Below, piece by piece: positions 5,218-55,232 of a DNA stretch of 64,000 nucleotides. A program made the position numbers and the translations under genes. The DNA lies in the NCBI GenBank assembly GCA_963837595.1, contig CAWIOB010000011.1, positions 1,397-65,396 of the forward strand, given 5' to 3'. The notes under the pieces are model-generated. The model was not told the origin of the DNA. It made no database searches and saw nothing but the letters and a program-made list of their open reading frames with translations. The DNA is from an uncultured Actinomycetota bacterium (lineage in GTDB: Bacteria > Actinomycetota > Actinomycetes > Propionibacteriales > Nocardioidaceae). How positions within the stretch are numbered: the first letter of the stretch is position 1; each line of letters begins with the position of its first letter.

Positions 5218-6495
5218 ATGAGCGCCATAGATTCCCTCACGGCCCCGGCCCCGGCCACGCTGCGTGAGGGCGCCTTCGGCTACGCCACGGGACTGGCCTG
5301 CCGGGAGTGCGGCCACGAGATCGCGCTCGGCCCGCACTACGCCTGTCCCGAGTGTTTCGGCCCCCTCGAGATCGCCTACGACTTCCCCGCCATCACCCGC
5401 GAGCAGATCGAGGCCGGGCCGGCCAACATCTGGCGCTACAAGGCCCTGCTTCCGGTGCCGGACGACATCGAGCAGAGCCCCAACATGGAGCCCGGCTTCA
5501 CACGGCTGCTGAAGGCAACCAACCTCGGCGCGGCCCTCGGCATCGACAACCTCTGGGTGAAGGACGACTCCACCAACCCGACCAACTCCTTCAAGGACCG
5601 GGTCGTGGCCTGTGCGCTCAGCGCGGCCACCGAGTTCCACAGCAAGGTCTTCGCCTGCCCCTCGACCGGCAACCTGGCCAACGCGGTCGCCGCGGCCGGG
5701 GCCCGCGCCGGCATCAAGACGGTCGTGTTCATCCCGGCCGACCTCGAGCAGCCCAAGCAGGTCAACTCCGCCATCTACACCGACTCCCTGGTGGCGGTGA
5801 ACGGCAACTACGACGACGTGAACCGTCTCGCCTCGGAGATCGCGGGCGAAGAGGAGGGCTGGGCCTTCGTCAACGTCAACGTCCGCCCGTTCTACGCCGA
5901 GGGCTCCAAGACGCTGGGCTACGAGATCGCCGAGCAGCTCGGGTGGAGACTGCCCGACCAGATCGTCATCCCGGTCGCCTCCGGCTCCCAGCTGACCAAG
6001 GTGCACAAGGCGTTCCAGGAGCTGATCAAGCTCGGCCTGGTGGCGGACAAGCCCTACCGGGTCTTCGGAGCCCAGGCGACCGGATGCTCACCGGTGTCGG
6101 TGGCCTACAAGGCCGGGGTCGACGCGATCCGGCCGGTGAAGCCCGACACGATCGCCAAGAGCCTGGCCATCGGCAACCCCGCCGACGGCATCTACGTCCT
6201 CGACATCTGTCGCGAGACCGGTGGCGCCGTCGAGGACATCACCGACGACGAGGTCCGCGACGGCATCGTCCTGCTGGCTCGCACCGAAGGCATCTTCACC
6301 GAGACGGCGGGCGGAACCACGGTCGGCGTACTCAAGAAGCTGGTGGAGACCGGACAGCTCGACACCACCCTCGACACCGTCGTGATCAACACCGGCCACG
6401 GACTCAAGACCCTGGACGCCATCTCCGGCCAGGTCGGGGCTGCGGCCGTCATCGAGCCGTCGTACGCTGCGTTCGCCGCGACCGGAATCGCCTGA
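5218..6495 (+). CDS. threonine synthase-like PLP enzyme with N-terminal Zn ribbon (possible O-phosphohomoserine sulfhydrylase)
   Basis: CRECG..CPECFGP, NPTNSFKDR (PLP Lys), STGNLA, EGSKTLGYEIAEQLGW, TGHGLK; RBS at 5206-5213. Confidence 0.9.
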   Translation: MSAIDSLTAPAPATLREGAFGYATGLACRECGHEIALGPHYACPECFGPLEIAYDFPAITREQIEAGPANIWRYKALLPVPDDIEQSPNMEPGFTRLLKATNLGAALGIDNLWVKDDSTNPTNSFKDRVVACALSAATEFHSKVFACPSTGNLANAVAAAGARAGIKTVVFIPADLEQPKQVNSAIYTDSLVAVNGNYDDVNRLASEIAGEEEGWAFVNVNVRPFYAEGSKTLGYEIAEQLGWRLPDQIVIPVASGSQLTKVHKAFQELIKLGLVADKPYRVFGAQATGCSPVSVAYKAGVDAIRPVKPDTIAKSLAIGNPADGIYVLDICRETGGAVEDITDDEVRDGIVLLARTEGIFTETAGGTTVGVLKKLVETGQLDTTLDTVVINTGHGLKTLDAISGQVGAAAVIEPSYAAFAATGIA

Positions 6496-6809: not shown

Positions 6810-8039
6810 TCATTGCTCTTGCTCGCTCCGATGACCAGGAGTGATGACGTCAGCGAGGTGGACGAGCAGCAGACGCTCCGGCTCGTTGTCGCACAGCGCG
6901 ATGGCCTGGTCGTACGCCGCCCTCGCCTCGTCCGGGCGGCCGGCCCGCGCGAGAAGCTCCGCGCGCACGCCCGGCAGCCGGTGGCCCGGGAGCTCGACTC
7001 CGTGCAGTGCGGACAGGCCGGCGAGCGGGCCGTCGGCCTCGGCCACGGCCACCGCCCGATTGAGGCGTACGACGGGGGAGTCGGCGCAGGCCACCAGCTC
7101 GTCGTAGCGGCTGACGATGCGCGGCCAGTCGGTGTCCTCGGCACGAGGTGCGATGGCGTGCTCGGCCGCGATCAGCGCCTGGAGCAGATAGGGCTCGGCC
7201 GGGTGGTGGACGAGCGGCCGGAGCAGGTCGAGCGCCTCGTCGATCTCGTAGCGGTGCCAGGCGCCGCGGTCCTGGTCCGGAAGCAGCACCGGCAGCCCGT
7301 CGACGACGCGGGCATCGCGGCGGGAGTGCTGCAGGAGCACGAGGGCGAGCAGGGCGGTGAGGACCGCGTTGTCGGGCAGGAGGTGGTGCAGGAGGCGGGT
7401 CAGCCGGACGCCCTCCGCGGCGAGGTCGGGGCTGCGGCCCGGAAGGTAGCCGTGGGTGAAGGCGAGATAGGAGATGGTGGCGAGGGTGTCGACGCGGGCG
7501 TCGAGGTCGTCGGCGGCAGGGACCTCGAAGGACTGACCGGCCAGGCGCTGGCGGGCCCGGGTCAGCCGAGCCGCCATCGTGGCGCGGGGCACCAGGAACA
7601 GGGAGGCGATCTCCTGGGTCGGCACTCCGAGCACCAGACGCAGCGTCAGGGCGGCCGCGGACTCCAGGGGCAGGGAGGGATGAGCGCACAGGAGGACGAG
7701 TCTCAGGCGTTCGTCGGTGATGGTGTTGCCGGGGTCCGCCATGGATCGCTGCGCCTCCTCTCGGGTGCGGGCGTCGACGACCAGCAGGGGCTCCTTGCGA
7801 GCCACCACGGCTTCGGATCTCAGACGATCGAGGACCCGGCGCCGCGCGACCGTCAGCAGCCAGGCGCTCGGGTTGTGGGGCGTGCCGTCCGCTCGCCAGG
7901 TCCGCGCCGCCGCCTCGAAGGCGTCGGCCAGGCCGTCCTCGGCGACGTCCAGCCGGCGGAACCGCGCGACGAGCAGGGCCAACAGTCGGCCCCACTCGTC
8001 GCGATGGATCTCCTCGAGTGTGGTCACACGTCGGGTCAC
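6810..8039 (-). CDS. ECF sigma factor with C-terminal TPR-like extension (ECF42 type)
   Basis: Region 2 AEDGLADAFEAA..WLLTVARRR, DERLRLVLLCAHP, YLLQALIAAEH, DWPRIV, SPVVRLNRAVA; GTG overlaps the stop of the YciI gene. Confidence 0.88.
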   Translation of the reverse strand: MTRRVTTLEEIHRDEWGRLLALLVARFRRLDVAEDGLADAFEAAARTWRADGTPHNPSAWLLTVARRRVLDRLRSEAVVARKEPLLVVDARTREEAQRSMADPGNTITDERLRLVLLCAHPSLPLESAAALTLRLVLGVPTQEIASLFLVPRATMAARLTRARQRLAGQSFEVPAADDLDARVDTLATISYLAFTHGYLPGRSPDLAAEGVRLTRLLHHLLPDNAVLTALLALVLLQHSRRDARVVDGLPVLLPDQDRGAWHRYEIDEALDLLRPLVHHPAEPYLLQALIAAEHAIAPRAEDTDWPRIVSRYDELVACADSPVVRLNRAVAVAEADGPLAGLSALHGVELPGHRLPGVRAELLARAGRPDEARAAYDQAIALCDNEPERLLLVHLADVITPGHRSEQEQ

Positions 8040-8398
8040 ATGTCGGAGGAGTGGTCCACGCACTCGCGGACCTCGACGGCGCCCTCACCCTCGGTCAGCT
8101 TGCCGACGCAGTTGAGCAGGTCGTCGAGGTCGTCGGACTCGACGAGGTAGAAGCCGGTGAGCTGTTCGACCGACTCCGCATAGGGGCCGGCCGTGACGGT
8201 GACGGAGTCCAGCGCACCGGACACCACCCGGGCTGTCTTGGAGTGGGTGAGCTCGGCGCCGGCGGTGACCCGGTGGCCGCGCTCCGCGAGCACCGCCGCG
8301 AAAGCATTGTGCTTGGCGTACATCTCGGCCTTCTGCTCGACCGATGCTGCGGCCCAGGCGTCCTCGTTGTCCGGAATCAGTACGACGTACTCGGTCAT
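8036..8398 (-). CDS. YciI/DGPF family protein
   Basis: TAGPYAESVEQLTGFYLVE, VEVRE; classical ECF42 partner. Confidence 0.9.
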   Translation of the reverse strand: MTEYVVLIPDNEDAWAAASVEQKAEMYAKHNAFAAVLAERGHRVTAGAELTHSKTARVVSGALDSVTVTAGPYAESVEQLTGFYLVESDDLDDLLNCVGKLTEGEGAVEVRECVDHSSDM

Positions 8399-8439
8399 GG
8401 TGCGATCCTTCCCTCGTGAGTGGAGTCTGACACCGAGAT

Positions 8440-8466
8440 GACGGGCACGGTATGCGGAAATCGACA
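8440..8466 (-). promoter_or_regulatory. ECF42-type promoter TGTCGA-N17-CGTC
   Basis: Minus strand reads TGTCGA tttccgcataccgtgcc CGTC upstream of yciI; fits the ECF42 autoregulatory consensus. Confidence 0.7.
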
Positions 8467-8485
8467 GGGCCGGAGGATCCCCAAA

Positions 8486-8556
8486 GTGGGAGCGTTCCCA
8501 CGAATCCCTTGACACGCGAGGTGATCGCGGTCACAGTTGCGTGGGAACGCTCCCAC
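8486..8556 (+). promoter_or_regulatory. two CebR/CelR operators flanking the cebE promoter
   Basis: TGGGAGCGTTCCCA (8487-8500) and TGGGAACGCTCCCA (8542-8555), each one mismatch from TGGGAGCGCTCCCA; TTGACA(8509)-N17-CACAGT(8532) lies between them. Confidence 0.88.
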
Positions 8557-8583
8557 TTATCCGCCGAGAACGGGTGACAGACG

Positions 8584-9882
8584 ATGAAAATGCACATGAA
8601 CCGCACCAGGCTGGCAGCCCTTGTGGCGCTCACCCTGGCGACCTCAGCAACCCTGGCAGCCTGTGGCGGGGGTGGTGACGACAAGGCCGGCGAGGACGTG
8701 ACCCTGCGGGTGTCCGTCTTCGGCAACTTCGGCTACGAGGACCTCTACAAGCAGTTCGAGAAGGACAACCCCGGTGTCACGATCGTCGAGGCCGCCGAGG
8801 GTGACCTCGGGCAGTACAACACCCAGCTGACCCAGAAGATCGCGGCCGGCAGCGGGGCCGGGGACGTCGTGGCGATCGAGGAGGGTCAGATCGTCAACTT
8901 CCTCCAGAAGCCCGACAACTTCGTGAACATGCAGGACCACGGGTCGAACGACAAGAAGGACCAGTGGCTCGACTGGAAGTACGCCCAGGCCACCACCGCC
9001 GACGGCAAGGACACCATCGGCCTCGGGACCGACGTCGGTGGCCTCGCCATGTGCTACCGCAAGGACCTCTTCGAGAAGGCGGGGCTGCCCACCGACCGGG
9101 ACGCGGTCAGTGCGCTGTGGCCGACCTGGGACGACTACATCGCCACCGGTCAGCAGTTCCAGGACGGCATCGGCGACGACAAGGTGCACTTCGTCGACTC
9201 CGCGACCAACACCTACAACTCGATCCTGATGCAGTCCTCCGACCACACCTACTTCGACACCGACGGCAGCCTGGTCATCGACTCGAACCCGGCCGTCAAG
9301 GACGCCTGGGACACCTCGGTGCAGATGGTCGACGACGGCATCACCGCCCGCCTCAAGTCCTTCTCCAACGAGTGGAACGCCGGTTTCAAGAACGGCAGCT
9401 TCGCGACCATCGCCTGCCCAGCCTGGATGACCGGCTACATCAAGGAGCAGGCCGGCGAGGCCAACACCGGGAAGTGGGACATCGCCTCGGTCCCCGGCGG
9501 CGGCGGCAACTGGGGCGGCTCGTTCCTCGCCGTGCCCACCTCGAGCGACCACCAGGACCTCGCCATCAAGCTGGCGTTCTTCCTGTCCAGTGCCGACGGG
9601 CAGATGTCCGCCTTCAACAAGGTGGGCAACCTCCCCTCGAACCCCACGCTCTACGACACCCCGGAGCTCAAGGGTGCGGTCAACGAGTTCTTCAGCAACG
9701 CACCGGTCGGCCAGATCTTCGTGGCCGGAGCCAAGAACCTGACGCCGGTCTACCTCGGGGCGAAGAACCAGCCCGTCCGGGACGCGGTCGAGAACGCGCT
9801 GCGCAGCGTCGAGAACGGGCAGAAGTCCTCAGCCGACGCGTGGGACACCGCGGTGTCGGACGCCCAGGCAGCCGCGGGCTGA
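8584..9882 (+). CDS. cebE: cellobiose/cello-oligosaccharide ABC substrate-binding lipoprotein
   Basis: Lipobox LAAC, GLGTDVGGLAMCYRKDLF, GNWGGSFL; CebR boxes and GH1 gene in the operon. Confidence 0.85.
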   Translation: MKMHMNRTRLAALVALTLATSATLAACGGGGDDKAGEDVTLRVSVFGNFGYEDLYKQFEKDNPGVTIVEAAEGDLGQYNTQLTQKIAAGSGAGDVVAIEEGQIVNFLQKPDNFVNMQDHGSNDKKDQWLDWKYAQATTADGKDTIGLGTDVGGLAMCYRKDLFEKAGLPTDRDAVSALWPTWDDYIATGQQFQDGIGDDKVHFVDSATNTYNSILMQSSDHTYFDTDGSLVIDSNPAVKDAWDTSVQMVDDGITARLKSFSNEWNAGFKNGSFATIACPAWMTGYIKEQAGEANTGKWDIASVPGGGGNWGGSFLAVPTSSDHQDLAIKLAFFLSSADGQMSAFNKVGNLPSNPTLYDTPELKGAVNEFFSNAPVGQIFVAGAKNLTPVYLGAKNQPVRDAVENALRSVENGQKSSADAWDTAVSDAQAAAG

Positions 9883-50442: not shown

Positions 50443-50468
50443 TTCGGAGCCCCGGGCTCGACGGATGG
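50443..50468 (-). promoter_or_regulatory. SigK-type ECF promoter
   Basis: Minus strand CCATCC-N15-CCGAA upstream of the Tat/DUF4331 operon; second copy at 53432-53457. Confidence 0.75.
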
Positions 50469-50567
50469 GTGACCGGGGTGGAAACTTTCGGGACCCCGTA
50501 GGCAACCTCACGACCCCGTGGCGCGTCCTACGGCTGAGAGTGCCGCTGAGAAGAGAACGGACCACCC

Positions 50568-53276
50568 ATGTCGATGACGAAGTCGAGCCGAAGAGTCGCC
50601 TGCTGGGTGGGGAGCGTCACCCTCGGCGTACTCACCGTGATGGCCCCGGTCACGGCAGGGGCCGCTCCTGCCGGCGCGCCGGCCCCGGGAGACGGCGATC
50701 GAGGAGTCTGGCAGGTCTCCAGGATCGACGACGGGACGTGGCAGGTGACCTGGCGTTCGCCGTCGCTCCTGCCGGTGACCTCCGACCGACCCACGATCGT
50801 CGAGGACACCCGGTCCCTGGGGGTGCCGACCATCGCCGACGACGGTCGGACGGTGCAGGTGACCGTACGGTCGGACGTCGCACCGGATCCGCTGGACCTG
50901 GACGTCGTCCTGTCCGGGGACCGTCTCGACAGCATCGGCGACGATCTGAAGGGCACCGCTCCGGCGACCACCGGTCGAGTGGCGCAAACCGTCCTCGGCG
51001 AGGACCCGGCAACCCCCGGGCCCTACGACGTCGTCACCAGCGACTACGAACTGCCCGCTGTGAAGCTGGCGGGCATGCCCGAGCCGATCGAGATGGTCGG
51101 CCACATCGTCGAGCCCGCCCCGGACGCCGTCACCGGCGCCCGGCCGCTGGTCCTGTTCCTGCACGGGCGGCACAGCTACTGCTACAACCCGGCCAACGGC
51201 GACGACGGCTGGGAATGGCCGTGTCGGAGTCCGTTCGAGGAGATCCCGAGCCAGCTCGGCTACGACTACATCCAGAAGCTGCTGGCCTCCCAGGGTTACG
51301 CGACGGTCTCCATCCGCGTCAACGGGATCAATGCTCAGGACTACGCCCTCGACGACGGTGGTGCGGGTGCGCGCGCCCGGATCATCCGCGAGCACCTCGA
51401 CCACTGGGTCTCCCTCGCCGCCGACCATCAGGTCGACCTCTCACGGGTGGTGCTCGTGGGGCACAGTCGCGGAGGTGAGGGGGTGGATCGCGCCTCCATC
51501 CAGATCCCGCTCGACGCGCCCTACCGCGTCGTCGGGCAGGTCCTCATCGCCCCGACCGACTTCGGCACCCAGACCGCCCCCTACGTCCCCACGGTGACGC
51601 TGCTGCCCTACTGCGACGGCGACGTGATCGACCTGCAGGGTCAGCGCTTCACCGACACCGCCCGCGACCTGAGCGTCCGGGACACCGCGCTGAAGAGCTC
51701 GGTGATGGTGATGGGGGCCAACCACAACTTCTTCAACACCGAGTGGACCCCCGGCATCGCTGCGGCCCCTGCCTTCGACGACTGGTTCGGCCCCGAGGCA
51801 GGTGCCTGCGGGACCGCGACCCCGGCACGGCTCAGTCCGGCGGAGCAGCAGGACGTCGGCAAGGCCTGGGTGGCCGGCGCGGTCCACCTGTTCGCCGACG
51901 ACGCCGAGCAGTTCCTGCCGATGTTCGACGGTTCCGGTGCCACCGTGGCCTCGGTCGGCGATGCCGACGTCCGCTCCCACGCACTCGGCGGCGGTCGCGT
52001 GCTGCGGCGCCCCGGGCTCGGCACGGGGTTGTCGCTGGCAGATGGTGCCGAGACGCAGTTCTGCCGTGGGATCAACGAGTTCGGTGGCGCTCACAACATC
52101 TGTGGACGCACCATCCGGGACAGCTACGTCACGCCGCACTGGCCCGCCTCCTACGAGCAGGTGCCCACCCGTCGGGCCTTCGAGATGTCCTGGAGCGCCC
52201 CGGGTCAGTCCGGTGGACTGGTGTTCGCCCATCCTCTGGACCTCAGCGGGGGACGGCTCGAGCTGCGCACCGTCGTCGACCCGCCCCTGGGCGGCGTACG
52301 ACTGCGCGTGCGGGTCACCGACGCCGACGGGGGGAGCTCGACACTCACGCCGGCGGGCGGCGGCCAGCTGCCGGCGCTGCTGCGGGGTCGCGGGCTGTCG
52401 AAGCGCTGGGCGCAGACCCTGCTGGTCGACACGTCCACCGCGACCGGGGTCGACCTCACCCGCATCAGCCAGGTCGACCTGATCGGCGACAGCCCCGACG
52501 GCCGGATCTGGGTCGAGGACCTGGCGGCCGCTCCGTCCCGTCTGGCCCCGGTGCCCGAGGAGCGGTTGCCGCTGGTCAGCATCGGCAGCCTGCGCCAGCA
52601 GGAGGGTGACGGGCCCGGGACGGTCACCGCGCGAGTCCCGTTCACGATCCAAGGTTCCGTGGATCACCCCGCCCGTCTGGTCGCGGTGGTCGCCGGAGAG
52701 GAGCGTGGCAACACGCACCGGTTCGCGATCGACCTGGCGCCGGGACAGACCTCGGGGAGCATCCCGATCGACTACCAGGCGGACACCGCCGACGACTACC
52801 CGCGCACCTACACGCTGGTGGCGGCCTGGGCGACCAAGGAGGCCATGACCGACGACTACCTGGGCCGGCTGGTGGTCGTGGACGACGACCCCAGCCCCAC
52901 CATCACCATCACGCCGGTCTCGCGGACCGTCAAGGAGGGCCAGAACGCCACCTGGCGGATCACACTCTCGGACCCGGTCGACTACGACCTCTACATCGAC
53001 GGGCAGGTGGCGCGCGGACCCAAGCCGGCGCTGAAGGGTTTCGACGTACCACTCTCGTGGCTTCGTGACCACGGTTCCACCCGGCACCGCGCATGGCCGA
53101 TGTGGCGCTCGGGAGCCTGGGTCTACACCGCGGTGAAGCGAGGGAGGACGACAGCGACGATCTCGGTCCCGATCCGCAAGGACGGGGCGAAGGAGCGCCG
53201 TGAGGCGTTGACGGTGGACTTCCACATCAACCGCCGCACCGTCACCCGAACCATCAGGGTGGCCGCCTCGCGCTGA
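50568..53276 (+). CDS. secreted alpha/beta hydrolase with C-terminal Ig/Calx-beta-like domains
   Basis: Signal peptide; LVLFLHGRH, nucleophile GHSRGG, CDGDV, GANHNFFN. Confidence 0.85.
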   Translation: MSMTKSSRRVACWVGSVTLGVLTVMAPVTAGAAPAGAPAPGDGDRGVWQVSRIDDGTWQVTWRSPSLLPVTSDRPTIVEDTRSLGVPTIADDGRTVQVTVRSDVAPDPLDLDVVLSGDRLDSIGDDLKGTAPATTGRVAQTVLGEDPATPGPYDVVTSDYELPAVKLAGMPEPIEMVGHIVEPAPDAVTGARPLVLFLHGRHSYCYNPANGDDGWEWPCRSPFEEIPSQLGYDYIQKLLASQGYATVSIRVNGINAQDYALDDGGAGARARIIREHLDHWVSLAADHQVDLSRVVLVGHSRGGEGVDRASIQIPLDAPYRVVGQVLIAPTDFGTQTAPYVPTVTLLPYCDGDVIDLQGQRFTDTARDLSVRDTALKSSVMVMGANHNFFNTEWTPGIAAAPAFDDWFGPEAGACGTATPARLSPAEQQDVGKAWVAGAVHLFADDAEQFLPMFDGSGATVASVGDADVRSHALGGGRVLRRPGLGTGLSLADGAETQFCRGINEFGGAHNICGRTIRDSYVTPHWPASYEQVPTRRAFEMSWSAPGQSGGLVFAHPLDLSGGRLELRTVVDPPLGGVRLRVRVTDADGGSSTLTPAGGGQLPALLRGRGLSKRWAQTLLVDTSTATGVDLTRISQVDLIGDSPDGRIWVEDLAAAPSRLAPVPEERLPLVSIGSLRQQEGDGPGTVTARVPFTIQGSVDHPARLVAVVAGEERGNTHRFAIDLAPGQTSGSIPIDYQADTADDYPRTYTLVAAWATKEAMTDDYLGRLVVVDDDPSPTITITPVSRTVKEGQNATWRITLSDPVDYDLYIDGQVARGPKPALKGFDVPLSWLRDHGSTRHRAWPMWRSGAWVYTAVKRGRTTATISVPIRKDGAKERREALTVDFHINRRTVTRTIRVAASR

Positions 53277-53293
53277 GGGGACATCAGCGCAAC

Positions 53294-53340
53294 GGGCTCG
53301 TCCTCGGTTCCCCTCCCACAAGGGAACCGAGGACGAGCCC
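53294..53340. terminator. perfect 19-bp hairpin between convergent units
   Basis: GGGCTCGTCCTCGGTTCCC / GGGAACCGAGGACGAGCCC with a 9-nt loop. Confidence 0.8.
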
Positions 53341-53425
53341 ACCTGCACAGGCGTCCCCGTAGACGCGCCCGTTGGTGCCCGGTCTCCGCGGCGGGGGCTG
53401 CCGGGATTCCGAACCCTTCAACTGT
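53294..53425 (-). ncRNA. candidate ~130-nt sRNA from a SigK-type promoter
   Basis: Lies between the promoter at 53432-53457 and the hairpin at 53294-53340; no convincing ORF. Confidence 0.5.
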
Positions 53426-53431
53426 CAGGGA

Positions 53432-53457
53432 TTCGGAGCCCCTCGTGGCGCGGATGG
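53432..53457 (-). promoter_or_regulatory. SigK-type ECF promoter (second copy)
   Basis: CCATCC-N15-CCGAA; shares ACCCATCCG and GGGGCTCCGAA with the 50443-50468 copy. Confidence 0.7.
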
Positions 53458-53597
53458 GTCGGCACCCCCCCGTCTAGACCGGGCGCCTCAGGTTTCCCCG
53501 GATATCCGGGGAAACTCGCGGTTGTCAGCCGTTGCAACAGCCGACAACCACCGACAAGGCCTGACAGGCCGCGCTCAAGGGGCTGGTGTGGCCCGAC

Positions 53598-55232
53598 TCA
53601 GAGGTCGTCCGCGTCGACGATCCGATAGGCGTAGCCCTGCTCGGCGAGGAAGCGCTGCCGGTTCTGGGCGAAGTCGGCGTCGACGGTGTCACGGGACACG
53701 ATCGTGTAGAAGTGAGCGCTCTTGCCCTCGGCCTTCGGGCGCAGCAGACGGCCGAGTCGCTGGGCCTCCTCCTGGCGGGAACCGAACGACCCCGAGACCT
53801 GGATCGCGACCTCCGCCGAGGGCAGATCGATCGAGAAGTTCGCCACCTTCGAGACGACGAGCAGGCCGACCTCGCCGGTTCGGAAGGCCTCGAACAGCCG
53901 CTGACGTTCCTTCACCGGGGTGTCGCCCTTGATGACGGGCGCATCGAGGATGGCGGCCAACTCGTCGAGCTGGTCGATGTACTGCCCGATCACCAGCGTG
54001 GGCTGGCCCTGGTGCTGCTTCACCAGCTGCCTGACCACGTCGACCTTGTGGTGGGTGCACGAGGCGAGCCGGTAGCGCTCCTCGGGCTCGGCCGTCGCGT
54101 AGGCCAGTCGCTCGTTGTTGGGCAGGGTCACCCTCACCTCGACACAGTCCGCGGGGGCGATCCATCCTTGCGCCTCGATGTCCTTCCACGGTGCGTCATA
54201 CCGCTTCGGGCCGATCAGCGAGAACACGTCCCCCTCGCGGCCGTCCTCGCGCACGAGCGTCGCGGTCAGGCCGATCCGCCGACGGGCCTGCAGGTTGGCG
54301 GTCATCCGGAAGATCGGCGCCGGCAGCAGATGGACCTCGTCGTAGATGACCAGACCCCAGTCGCGGGCGTCGAGGAGCTCGAGGTGGGTGTAGGCGCCGT
54401 TTCGTCGGGTGGTGAGCACCTGGTACGTCGCGATCGTGACGGGCCGGACCTCCTTGACCGCTCCGGAGTATTCGCCGATCTCGTCCTCGGTGAGCGAGGT
54501 GCGCTTGATCAGCTCCTCCTTCCACTGCCGAGCGCTGACCGTGTTGGTGACCAGGATCAGCGTGGTCGCCTTCGCGTGTGCCATGGCGGCCGCGCCCACC
54601 AGGGTCTTCCCAGCTCCGCACGGGAGTACGACGACGCCGGAGCCGCCGTGCCAGAACGAGTCGGCGGCATCGCGCTGGTAGCCGCGCAGGTGCCACTCCG
54701 ACTCATCGAGCTCGATGGCGTGCGCCTCTCCGTCGACGTAGCCCGCGAAGTCCTCGGCCGGCCAACCGAGCTTGAGCAGCGCCTGCTTCAGGTTCCCGCG
54801 CTCGCTGGGGTGGATGGCCACCGTGTCCTCGTCGAGGCGGGCACCGATCATGCCGGCGACCTTCTTGGCGCGCAGCACCTCCTCGAGCACGGGCCGGTCG
54901 TTGCTGGCCAGCACGAGCCCGTGGACGGGATGCTTGTCGAGACGAAGCCGCCCGTAGCGGGCCATCGTCTCGGCGATGTCGACGAGCAGGGAGTGCGGCA
55001 CGGCGTACCGGCTGTAGGTGAGCAGGGTGTCCACCACCTGCTCCGCGTCGTGTCCCGCGGCGCGGGCGTTCCAGAGACCGAGCGGGGTGAGCCGGTAGGT
55101 GTGGATGTGTTCAGGGGAGCGTTCGAGCTCGGCGAACGGCGCGATGGCCTTGCGGCACTCCTGCGCGAGCTCGTGGTCGATCTCCAGCAGCAGGGTCTTG
55201 TCGGACTGGACGATCAGAGGGCCTTCGTTCAC
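53598..55232 (-). CDS. DNA repair helicase XPB
   Basis: LPCGAGKT, DEVH, RED motif (LVREDG), QRLGRLLR. Confidence 0.95.
   Translation of the reverse strand: MNEGPLIVQSDKTLLLEIDHELAQECRKAIAPFAELERSPEHIHTYRLTPLGLWNARAAGHDAEQVVDTLLTYSRYAVPHSLLVDIAETMARYGRLRLDKHPVHGLVLASNDRPVLEEVLRAKKVAGMIGARLDEDTVAIHPSERGNLKQALLKLGWPAEDFAGYVDGEAHAIELDESEWHLRGYQRDAADSFWHGGSGVVVLPCGAGKTLVGAAAMAHAKATTLILVTNTVSARQWKEELIKRTSLTEDEIGEYSGAVKEVRPVTIATYQVLTTRRNGAYTHLELLDARDWGLVIYDEVHLLPAPIFRMTANLQARRRIGLTATLVREDGREGDVFSLIGPKRYDAPWKDIEAQGWIAPADCVEVRVTLPNNERLAYATAEPEERYRLASCTHHKVDVVRQLVKQHQGQPTLVIGQYIDQLDELAAILDAPVIKGDTPVKERQRLFEAFRTGEVGLLVVSKVANFSIDLPSAEVAIQVSGSFGSRQEEAQRLGRLLRPKAEGKSAHFYTIVSRDTVDADFAQNRQRFLAEQGYAYRIVDADDL

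Follow-up and report, generated by a model that had tools for sequence, protein, structure and literature searches.

Small RNAs (sRNAs) driven by extracytoplasmic function (ECF) σ factors are a known kind of system. In mycobacteria, the small RNA F6 is driven by SigF, and the SigK regulon of Mycobacterium tuberculosis includes the fasciclin proteins and antigens MPT70 and MPT83 (mpt70/mpt83). The C-rich loops of the actinobacterial sRNA 6C belong to a type that needs no chaperone to pair with G-rich targets. Conservation of SigK binding sites among Actinobacteria has been reported (PMC7509140). The literature that we searched describes no RNA in the mycobacterial SigK regulon. In Escherichia coli, the ECF factor σE drives the sRNAs MicA, RybB, and MicL beside its protein regulon, and MicL is transcribed from an ECF promoter of its own, located within the 3′ part of the same-strand gene upstream, cutC (PMC8103513). 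Lastly, the ChIP-seq sites of σE in Streptomyces coelicolor include one intergenic sRNA and five promoters of intragenic antisense RNAs (PMC10771440).

Here, we describe a locus within a window of 64,000 nucleotides (nt), the whole stretch of DNA analyzed, from a Nocardioides genome that we call G000 (window G+C content, 69%; assembly of 2.99 Mb in 13 contigs, 79% complete). An earlier reading of this window, made from its letters and open reading frames (ORFs) and referred to below as the sequence-only reading, had pointed out a minus-strand SigK-type promoter in a gap of about 320 bp between convergent genes, with no gene behind it, and had proposed that it drives an F6-like noncoding RNA ending in a perfect 19-bp hairpin, a possible post-transcriptional arm co-regulated with the DUF4331 operon. 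In what follows, P1 is the promoter of a nearby DUF4331 operon, P2 is the promoter under study, and SL1 and SL2 are stem-loops 1 and 2 of the putative P2 RNA. Judged by comparison among genomes, the locus is probably a SigK-dependent sRNA gene of narrow distribution that is new as a family. To its reading as a stand-alone gene for a noncoding RNA of about 130 nt in the SigK regulon, we assign a probability of roughly 0.55.

The P2 RNA matches no described family. When positions 52800 to 54000 were searched against Rfam with cmscan at E values of up to 10, neither F6, 6C, nor any other family was matched; the four returns (two microRNA hairpin models, an L31 leader, and a Burkholderia sRNA) were chance matches, all far below thresholds. 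The F6 likeness of the sequence-only reading was therefore not upheld: both are small actinobacterial RNAs under an alternative σ factor, but the σ factor and the promoter type differ and there is no homology. Like the P2 RNA with its SL1 apex, 6C is a structured sRNA with an exposed C-rich loop; however, the P2 RNA has one such loop rather than two, lacks it in one of four homologues, is narrowly distributed where 6C is phylum-wide, and gives no covariance-model match at E values of up to 10. The likeness to MicL may extend to the layout of a 3′-UTR-type sRNA with its own promoter: P2 lies just after the stop codon of the XPB helicase gene and upstream of the next strong hairpin (25 to 52 nt after the stop codon in the homologous loci G130, L336, and L341, with no strong hairpin in between; in G000, a hairpin-rich repeat is inserted). 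On the other hand, the two RNAs have no relation in sequence or structure, the σ factor here is SigK (ECF19 clade) and not RpoE, the putative P2 RNA shares its terminator with a convergent gene, and the organism is an actinobacterium, a group not known to have Hfq. With SigK/RskA of M. tuberculosis (ECF19), the Nocardioides system shares the σ factor family (NCBIfam SigK), an RskA-type anti-σ factor, and a fasciclin-domain gene directly upstream of sigK, whereas its regulon also contains DUF4331 genes and a leaderless molybdenum (Mo)-oxidoreductase gene. S. coelicolor σE is likewise an actinobacterial ECF σ factor, one with ChIP-seq sites at sRNA and antisense-RNA promoters, although it is of another ECF group with another promoter, and its RNAs, none of them related to the P2 RNA, were not analyzed further.

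Results

The locus and its homologues

The intergenic gap measures 321 bp (positions 53277 to 53597), in line with the length given in the sequence-only reading, and separates a plus-strand gene for a 902-amino-acid (aa) protein from the minus-strand XPB/ERCC3 helicase gene; the features of the locus are collected in Table 1. The 902-aa gene, hereafter the hydrolase gene, has a third-position G+C content (GC3) of 0.89 and a weak Chlorophyllase Pfam match, and its product is named "secreted protein" or "dienelactone hydrolase" in Atlas clusters and in the source. A 635-aa minus-strand ORF (51441 to 53348) was rejected as a gene, since its GC3 of 0.69, compared to 0.89 for the overlapping plus-strand gene, marks it as a shadow frame. 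Because of this, P2 has no downstream gene, as the sequence-only reading had stated; the remaining candidate, a 45-codon ORF, has no Pfam match and is not conserved.

Table 1. Features of the P2 locus and of the reference promoter P1 (positions in the window)
Feature	Positions	Strand	Comment
P2 −35 box, SigK type	53451..53459	−	Same bases as in the −35 box of P1; ATCCG core invariant in all four homologous loci
P2 extended −10 box	53432..53442	−	Ends in CTCCGAA; identical to the P1 box; CTCCGAA invariant in all four loci
P1, SigK-type promoter of the Tat-ORF/DUF4331 operon (reference copy)	50443..50470	−	Conserved in G130, L336, L337, and L338
Putative transcription start of P2	53423..53425	−	+1 placed at the 9th nucleotide after the −10 box, by analogy with leaderless SigK-type promoters
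Stem-loop 1 (SL1)	53374..53416	−	C-rich apex at 53398-53391; in the minimum-energy folds of G000 and L341
Stem-loop 2 (SL2)	53347..53372	−	In all four homologues; one pair seen as G.U, G-C, and A-U
21-bp terminal hairpin	53294..53340	−	Shared bidirectional terminator or 3′-end protector
45-codon TTG ORF, rejected as a gene	53284..53421	−	G+C by codon position, 0.67/0.67/0.76; no Pfam match
902-aa secreted α/β-hydrolase-like gene	50568..53276	+	Convergent; 3′ end shares the terminal hairpin
XPB/ERCC3 helicase gene	53598..55232	−	Upstream of the RNA, same strand; Pfam ERCC3_RAD25_C, Helicase_C_3, ResIII; source name "DNA repair helicase XPB"

Three further Nocardioides lineages carry promoter and RNA at the corresponding position: L336, an ENA metagenome contig (hydrolase identity, 86%); G130/L334, a Nocardioides sp. 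metagenome-assembled genome (76%); and L341, a JGI contig (65%). The RNA is complete in L336 and L341, and in G130 the first stem-loop is missing, with a 46-nt gap in its place. The homologues beyond G130 were reached via relatives of the 902-aa protein and their contigs. A BLASTN search with the gap in 60 relatives, and then with the RNA region in 400 genomes of the genus, matched only G130; a covariance-model search of 150 genus genomes yielded no further element; and exact 17-mer scans of genome and metagenome contigs gave, among the matches listed, chance matches and no homologue. The element is absent from L337 (85% identity, with a gap of just 29 nt), L340 (10-nt gap), L338 (Uma2-family genes inserted), and L342, as well as from relatives at about 60% hydrolase identity. 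Relatives no more distant than L336 do without the element, which is therefore dispensable. Its distribution in the sequences compared is narrow, with a few lineages carrying it and equally close relatives lacking it. Across the loci compared, promoter, stems, and hairpin are present or absent together.

The XPB-hydrolase neighborhood is an insertion hot spot. In L338, a Uma2-family endonuclease gene and a 54-aa ORF occupy the place where the RNA would be (5752 to 6299), and in L337 an IS30-like transposase gene (HTH_38 plus rve; 7437 to 8600) lies beside XPB. In G000 only, a REP-like repeat (minus strand, 53480 to 53569) is inserted between the XPB stop codon and P2; no such insert is found at this position in L336, L341, or G130. 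The repeat is intergenic, with a core of about 55 to 90 nt and two hairpins per copy, and the 3-Mb assembly contains 26 copies. P2 has a copy about 20 nt upstream of it, the fasciclin-sigK promoter has one about 30 nt upstream (G000 contig 7, 39294 to 39374), and 24 further places make up the rest. The repeat also occurs in several other Nocardioides genomes; in L336 it sits elsewhere, in the XPB-CGNR gap. Its variants carry apparently compensatory changes in the first hairpin, and no Rfam model matches it.

The promoter and the SigK regulon

P2 repeats P1 at every specified base. The nine-base −35 box and the eleven-base −10 box of P2 (53459-53451 and 53442-53432) are the same as those of P1 (50470-50462 and 50453-50443) at all 20 specified bases, and the spacer from CCATCC to CCGAA measures 15 nt in both promoters, as had been read from the sequence before. 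The two promoters are 2989 bp apart, which agrees with the earlier figure of 3 kb. A loose form of the promoter pattern has three matches in the window, compared to 0.19 expected from shuffles, and the full 20-base pattern exists in exactly two copies, P1 and P2, in the 2.99-Mb assembly.

In G000, a slightly relaxed pattern gave five promoter-like sites, namely, those of the oxidoreductase gene, the fasciclin-sigK-rskA operon, a 222-aa ORF on contig 10, P1, and P2; four of them precede genes, and P2 does not. The G000 σ factor scores 263.9 bits against the NCBIfam SigK model (cut-off, 226), and the gene beside it encodes an anti-σ equivalog (179 bits) with RskA_C domain matches. With up to three mismatches allowed, the pattern has 170 matches in 121 genus genomes, compared to 18 for the reversed control, an approximately 9-fold excess. 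Downstream of the motif in relatives are genes for a molybdopterin oxidoreductase, a fasciclin-domain protein followed by an ECF σ factor, DUF4331 operons, an AMP-binding enzyme, and, assigned by eye from an N-terminal dinucleotide-binding motif, a possible flavin amine oxidase. Of the strict sites in relatives, 21 were checked, and each is followed 8 to 65 nt downstream by the start of a gene on the same strand; P2 is the exception. The motif is called SigK-type because of its autoregulation and gene content. Its presence, with the boxes and spacing of P2, before the fasciclin-sigK-rskA operon and the Mo-oxidoreductase gene, in G000 and across the genus, bears out the promoter type proposed in the sequence-only reading, and by these comparisons the motif is predicted to be a genuine SigK-type promoter.

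At no fewer than five SigK-type promoters in the genus, that is, at least five, the start codon of a leaderless gene stands exactly 8 nt after CCGAA. On this ground, the +1 of P2 is placed at about 53423 to 53425. The Mo-oxidoreductase gene (sulfite-oxidase-like plus Ig domain; G000 contig 7, 37679 to 37714, locus L333; relatives L052, L041, L022, and L037) begins in several genomes with an ATG placed exactly 8 nt beyond the −10 box, and its mRNA is therefore evidently leaderless. In G096, this gene shares an overlapping divergent promoter pair with the flavin amine oxidase-like gene (by eye only). The fifth SigK-type promoter (G000 contig 10, 84514 to 84538; locus L332, about 514 to 538) precedes the 222-aa ORF, which has no NCBIfam match and is followed by genes for a TetR-like regulator and a DHA2-family MFS efflux protein.

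Two short sequences were noted upstream of these promoters. The assembly has only two copies of the 10-mer GAAAGTTTCC, and each directly precedes a SigK-type promoter: one at 50481-50490 (minus strand), 11 nt before the P1 box, and one at G000 contig 7, 39396-39405, overlapping the −35 box of the fasciclin-sigK promoter. It is not present at P2, and it may be an upstream element or the site of a second regulator. A block of 9 nt at about 53473 to 53481 (minus strand), which precedes the P2 −35 box by 13 to 14 nt, reads GGTCTAGAC in G000 and L336 and GGTCTGGAC in L341 and G130; it keeps the same distance in all four homologous loci, while the bases around it differ, and its core is an 8-nt palindrome found at only six genomic places.

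Comparison of G000, L336, L341, and G130 revealed a footprint at P2. ATCCG and CTCCGAA are invariant at a fixed spacing of 12 nt, whereas none of the 12 spacer positions is invariant across the four loci and little of the flanks can be aligned. The footprint recurs at P1, where the boxes are kept and the spacer is scrambled. Fourfold degenerate sites of the flanking genes are 46 to 69% identical among the element-carrying genomes. Thus, conservation in relatives, which the sequence-only reading had left to comparison, was found for promoter and hairpin RNA at the same position in three lineages. An argument from the overall identity of the RNA region was also tried: the region is 86% identical to that of L336, compared to 56 to 69% at fourfold degenerate sites, but the argument was dropped because other intergenic regions of the same pair are 76 to 86% identical.

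Fold and covariation of the RNA

The hairpin ends 138 nt from the −10 box, corresponding to an RNA of about 130 nt. Folded alone, the sequences of G000 and L341 each give the same three hairpins; that of L336 gives the SL1 core and the terminal hairpin without a separate SL2. G130 keeps SL2 and the terminal hairpin. The 5′ stem with a C-rich loop, first noticed in the sequence-only reading, is present in the minimum-energy fold as SL1. The three genomes with SL1 (three of the four homologues) share the same 8-nt C-rich apex, even though the surrounding stem differs; four SL1 pairs are changed on both sides, and in G130 the stem-loop is deleted.

With a covariance model built from G000 and L336 only, L341 scores 77 bits and G130 scores 52 bits, and in the covariance-model alignment of the four sequences 93.9% of cells are paired. 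In this structure-fitted alignment of four sequences, 5 of 45 pairs are changed on both sides, four of them in SL1, a count reached by 5 of 500 shuffles; the covariation score of the same structure-fitted, four-sequence alignment is 0.144 versus 0.080, and none of 500 shuffles reaches it. Slid controls show zero to one pair changed on both sides. MAFFT misaligned the promoter of G130 and the stems of L341, and hand and covariance-model alignments were therefore used; the hand alignment was checked letter by letter against the sequences, and both alignments lean to the fold. The consensus energy of the hand alignment is −57.8 for the RNA strand, compared to −46.2 for the reverse complement, and several G.U pairs exist on the RNA strand only. 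The evidence for covariation is accordingly divided: five compensatory pairs on the structure-fitted alignment of four sequences, and no compensatory pair with MAFFT and RNAalifold on three sequences. Modeled in this way, the transcribed part is a conserved three-hairpin RNA with some covariation.

The terminal hairpin

The perfect 19-bp hairpin of the sequence-only reading was confirmed at 53340-53294 and extended; on the minus strand, 19 Watson-Crick pairs, a U.G pair, and a U-A pair make 21 bp. Its energy is −47.1 kcal/mol on the minus strand (z = −8.6 versus shuffles) and −43.8 kcal/mol on the plus strand, and the hairpin of L341 carries one compensatory change from C-G to G-C. A scan for a U-tract or T-run at the hairpin found none on either strand, unlike a canonical intrinsic terminator, in which a U-tract follows the GC-rich hairpin; the hairpin downstream of the DUF4331 operon is likewise without a U-run in the sequence inspected.

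In L343 and G013, a hairpin with homologous arms follows the hydrolase gene, but the neighbor there is the DUF4331 operon and not XPB, and there is no SigK box. Because this homologue occurs without XPB as the neighbor, the terminal hairpin was ancestrally a terminator of the hydrolase gene. The hairpin is thus better described as a shared bidirectional terminator than as a feature specific to the RNA. A strand test on wobble pairs (G.U versus A.C) favors the hydrolase strand at two pairs in G130 and the RNA strand at one pair each in G000 and L341; this asymmetry is equivocal and fits a terminal hairpin that serves both strands. Either termination or trimming as far as the hairpin may generate the 3′ end of the RNA. 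In L343 (5198 to 5252) and in G013 (contig 39, about 68328 to 68432; locus L346), it is the final gene of the DUF4331 operon that the hydrolase gene meets in convergent orientation, with the homologous hairpin shared between them; at least two different arrangements therefore link this operon to the hydrolase gene. The hydrolase copy of G013 has in-frame stops and frame breaks.

Discussion

The promoter type, the selective conservation, the lack of a coding frame, and the conserved fold are each indicated by comparison among the genomes. Of the sRNA interpretation in the sequence-only reading, the SigK-type promoter has stood, with position and fold conserved in relatives and the ORF not conserved; the F6 likeness and the specificity of the hairpin have not, and few lineages carry the element. 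We propose that SigK, when released from its anti-σ factor RskA, would bind with RNA polymerase at the boxes between 53459 and 53432, and that transcription would start about 9 nt after the −10 box, near 53423 to 53425 on the minus strand. The transcript would fold into SL1 with its C-rich apex, SL2, and the 21-bp terminal hairpin. This preexisting terminator of the hydrolase gene, used in both directions, would stop transcription or, after trimming, protect what is presumed to be the 3′ end. As P2 is of SigK type, the RNA would be coexpressed with three other transcription units, those of DUF4331, fasciclin-sigK-rskA, and the Mo-oxidoreductase. Finally, the invariant C-rich apex suggests, by analogy to 6C, pairing with G-rich sites, and the RNA may act through base pairing in trans with G-rich translation-initiation regions.

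A search for trans targets, covering the sigK operon, other regulon leaders, the hydrolase start, and the complement of the apex in the genome, yielded no target that stands out. The longest complementary runs between the RNA and the start regions of the fasciclin gene, sigK, rskA, the P1 transcript, and the hydrolase gene are within the shuffle range; feedback by pairing of the RNA with sigK mRNA was considered and set aside on the same result. The complement of the 8-nt C-rich apex has 279 occurrences in the genome and is uninformative for targets. Furthermore, G130, which is without SL1, is also without the proposed seed, and this counts against a trans-acting sRNA.

The main rival is an effect in cis on the hydrolase mRNA. 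According to this explanation, the promoter is real and the transcript acts only on the convergent 902-aa hydrolase gene, lowering the secreted enzyme when SigK is active, either because the complementary 3′ ends pair across the shared hairpin and are cleaved by a double-strand RNase or because transcription enters the hydrolase gene from the opposite side. The only guaranteed complementarity of the RNA is indeed to the 3′ end of the hydrolase mRNA, via the shared hairpin; read-through antisense to the hydrolase gene is plausible because the terminal hairpin is without a U-tract; all loci with the element have XPB and the hydrolase gene in convergent orientation; and the regions searched hold no trans target. 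However, SL1, SL2, and the invariant apex show structural conservation and, on the structure-fitted alignment, covariation, and a pure interference device would not need them. Moreover, convergent genes commonly share terminators without regulatory consequence, and the lineages without the element keep the hydrolase gene. On this evidence, we regard an exclusively cis-acting transcript as rather unlikely.

It is improbable, too, that the site is a real one for SigK-RNA polymerase with a functionless product, whether a decaying remnant of a SigK-dependent gene or a promoter-terminator pair surviving by chance in a few lineages. Such a relic would suit the narrow distribution of the element, its loss at least two times among close relatives, the 46-nt deletion in the RNA of one lineage (G130), and an overall identity no higher than that of other intergenic regions; in S. 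coelicolor, likewise, many σE ChIP sites are of unknown activity (PMC10771440). What makes a functionless relic less likely is the footprint and the covariation: the boxes are invariant amid a scrambled spacer and scrambled flanks, among genomes whose fourfold degenerate sites are only 46 to 69% identical, compensatory changes on the structure-fitted alignment keep the stems, and the apex is invariant.

The chance-match and small-protein readings are both unlikely. That the motif match is a coincidence or the site of another protein, in a region holding just the terminators of two convergent genes, would leave the hairpin fully explained as a terminator common to those genes; it is nonetheless very doubtful given that the 20 specified bases are found only twice in the genome, that the boxes are kept with exact spacing in four diverged genomes, and that the motif exceeds its reversed control about 9-fold in the genus. 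We find it scarcely credible that the transcript encodes a small protein, from the 45-codon TTG ORF or another short frame: although the open frame begins 10 nt after the −10 box and leaderless genes occur at SigK promoters in the genus, L336 loses the frame ahead of the hairpin through a 1-nt indel, eight of the ten codon differences preceding that indel alter the amino acid, the start region is missing in G130, whose frames have just six residues in common with G000, a ribosome-binding site is lacking and the start would be TTG, and codon-position G+C is flat with no family match.

Returning to the reading as a SigK-dependent sRNA gene, a bolder and rather speculative extension, which we think more likely wrong than right, is that SigK-type (ECF18/19) regulons repeatedly recruit a small-RNA arm beside the DUF4331 envelope operon, here in the form of an RNA with a 6C-like C-rich seed. 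If that were true, the logic of σE, which activates proteins and represses via sRNAs, would be a general, convergently evolved feature of the SigK-type stress response. For Nocardioides itself, a SigK-driven sRNA would add a repressor arm to the regulon, as σE has in enterobacteria. The DUF4331 genes under SigK control here are uncharacterized and the literature that we searched leaves the function of the SigK regulon open, and such an sRNA would be a compact, testable handle on the purpose of the regulon. The locus would also clearly illustrate how an ECF promoter and the terminator of a neighbor can be put together into an sRNA gene, one that has been gained, trimmed, and lost within one genus.
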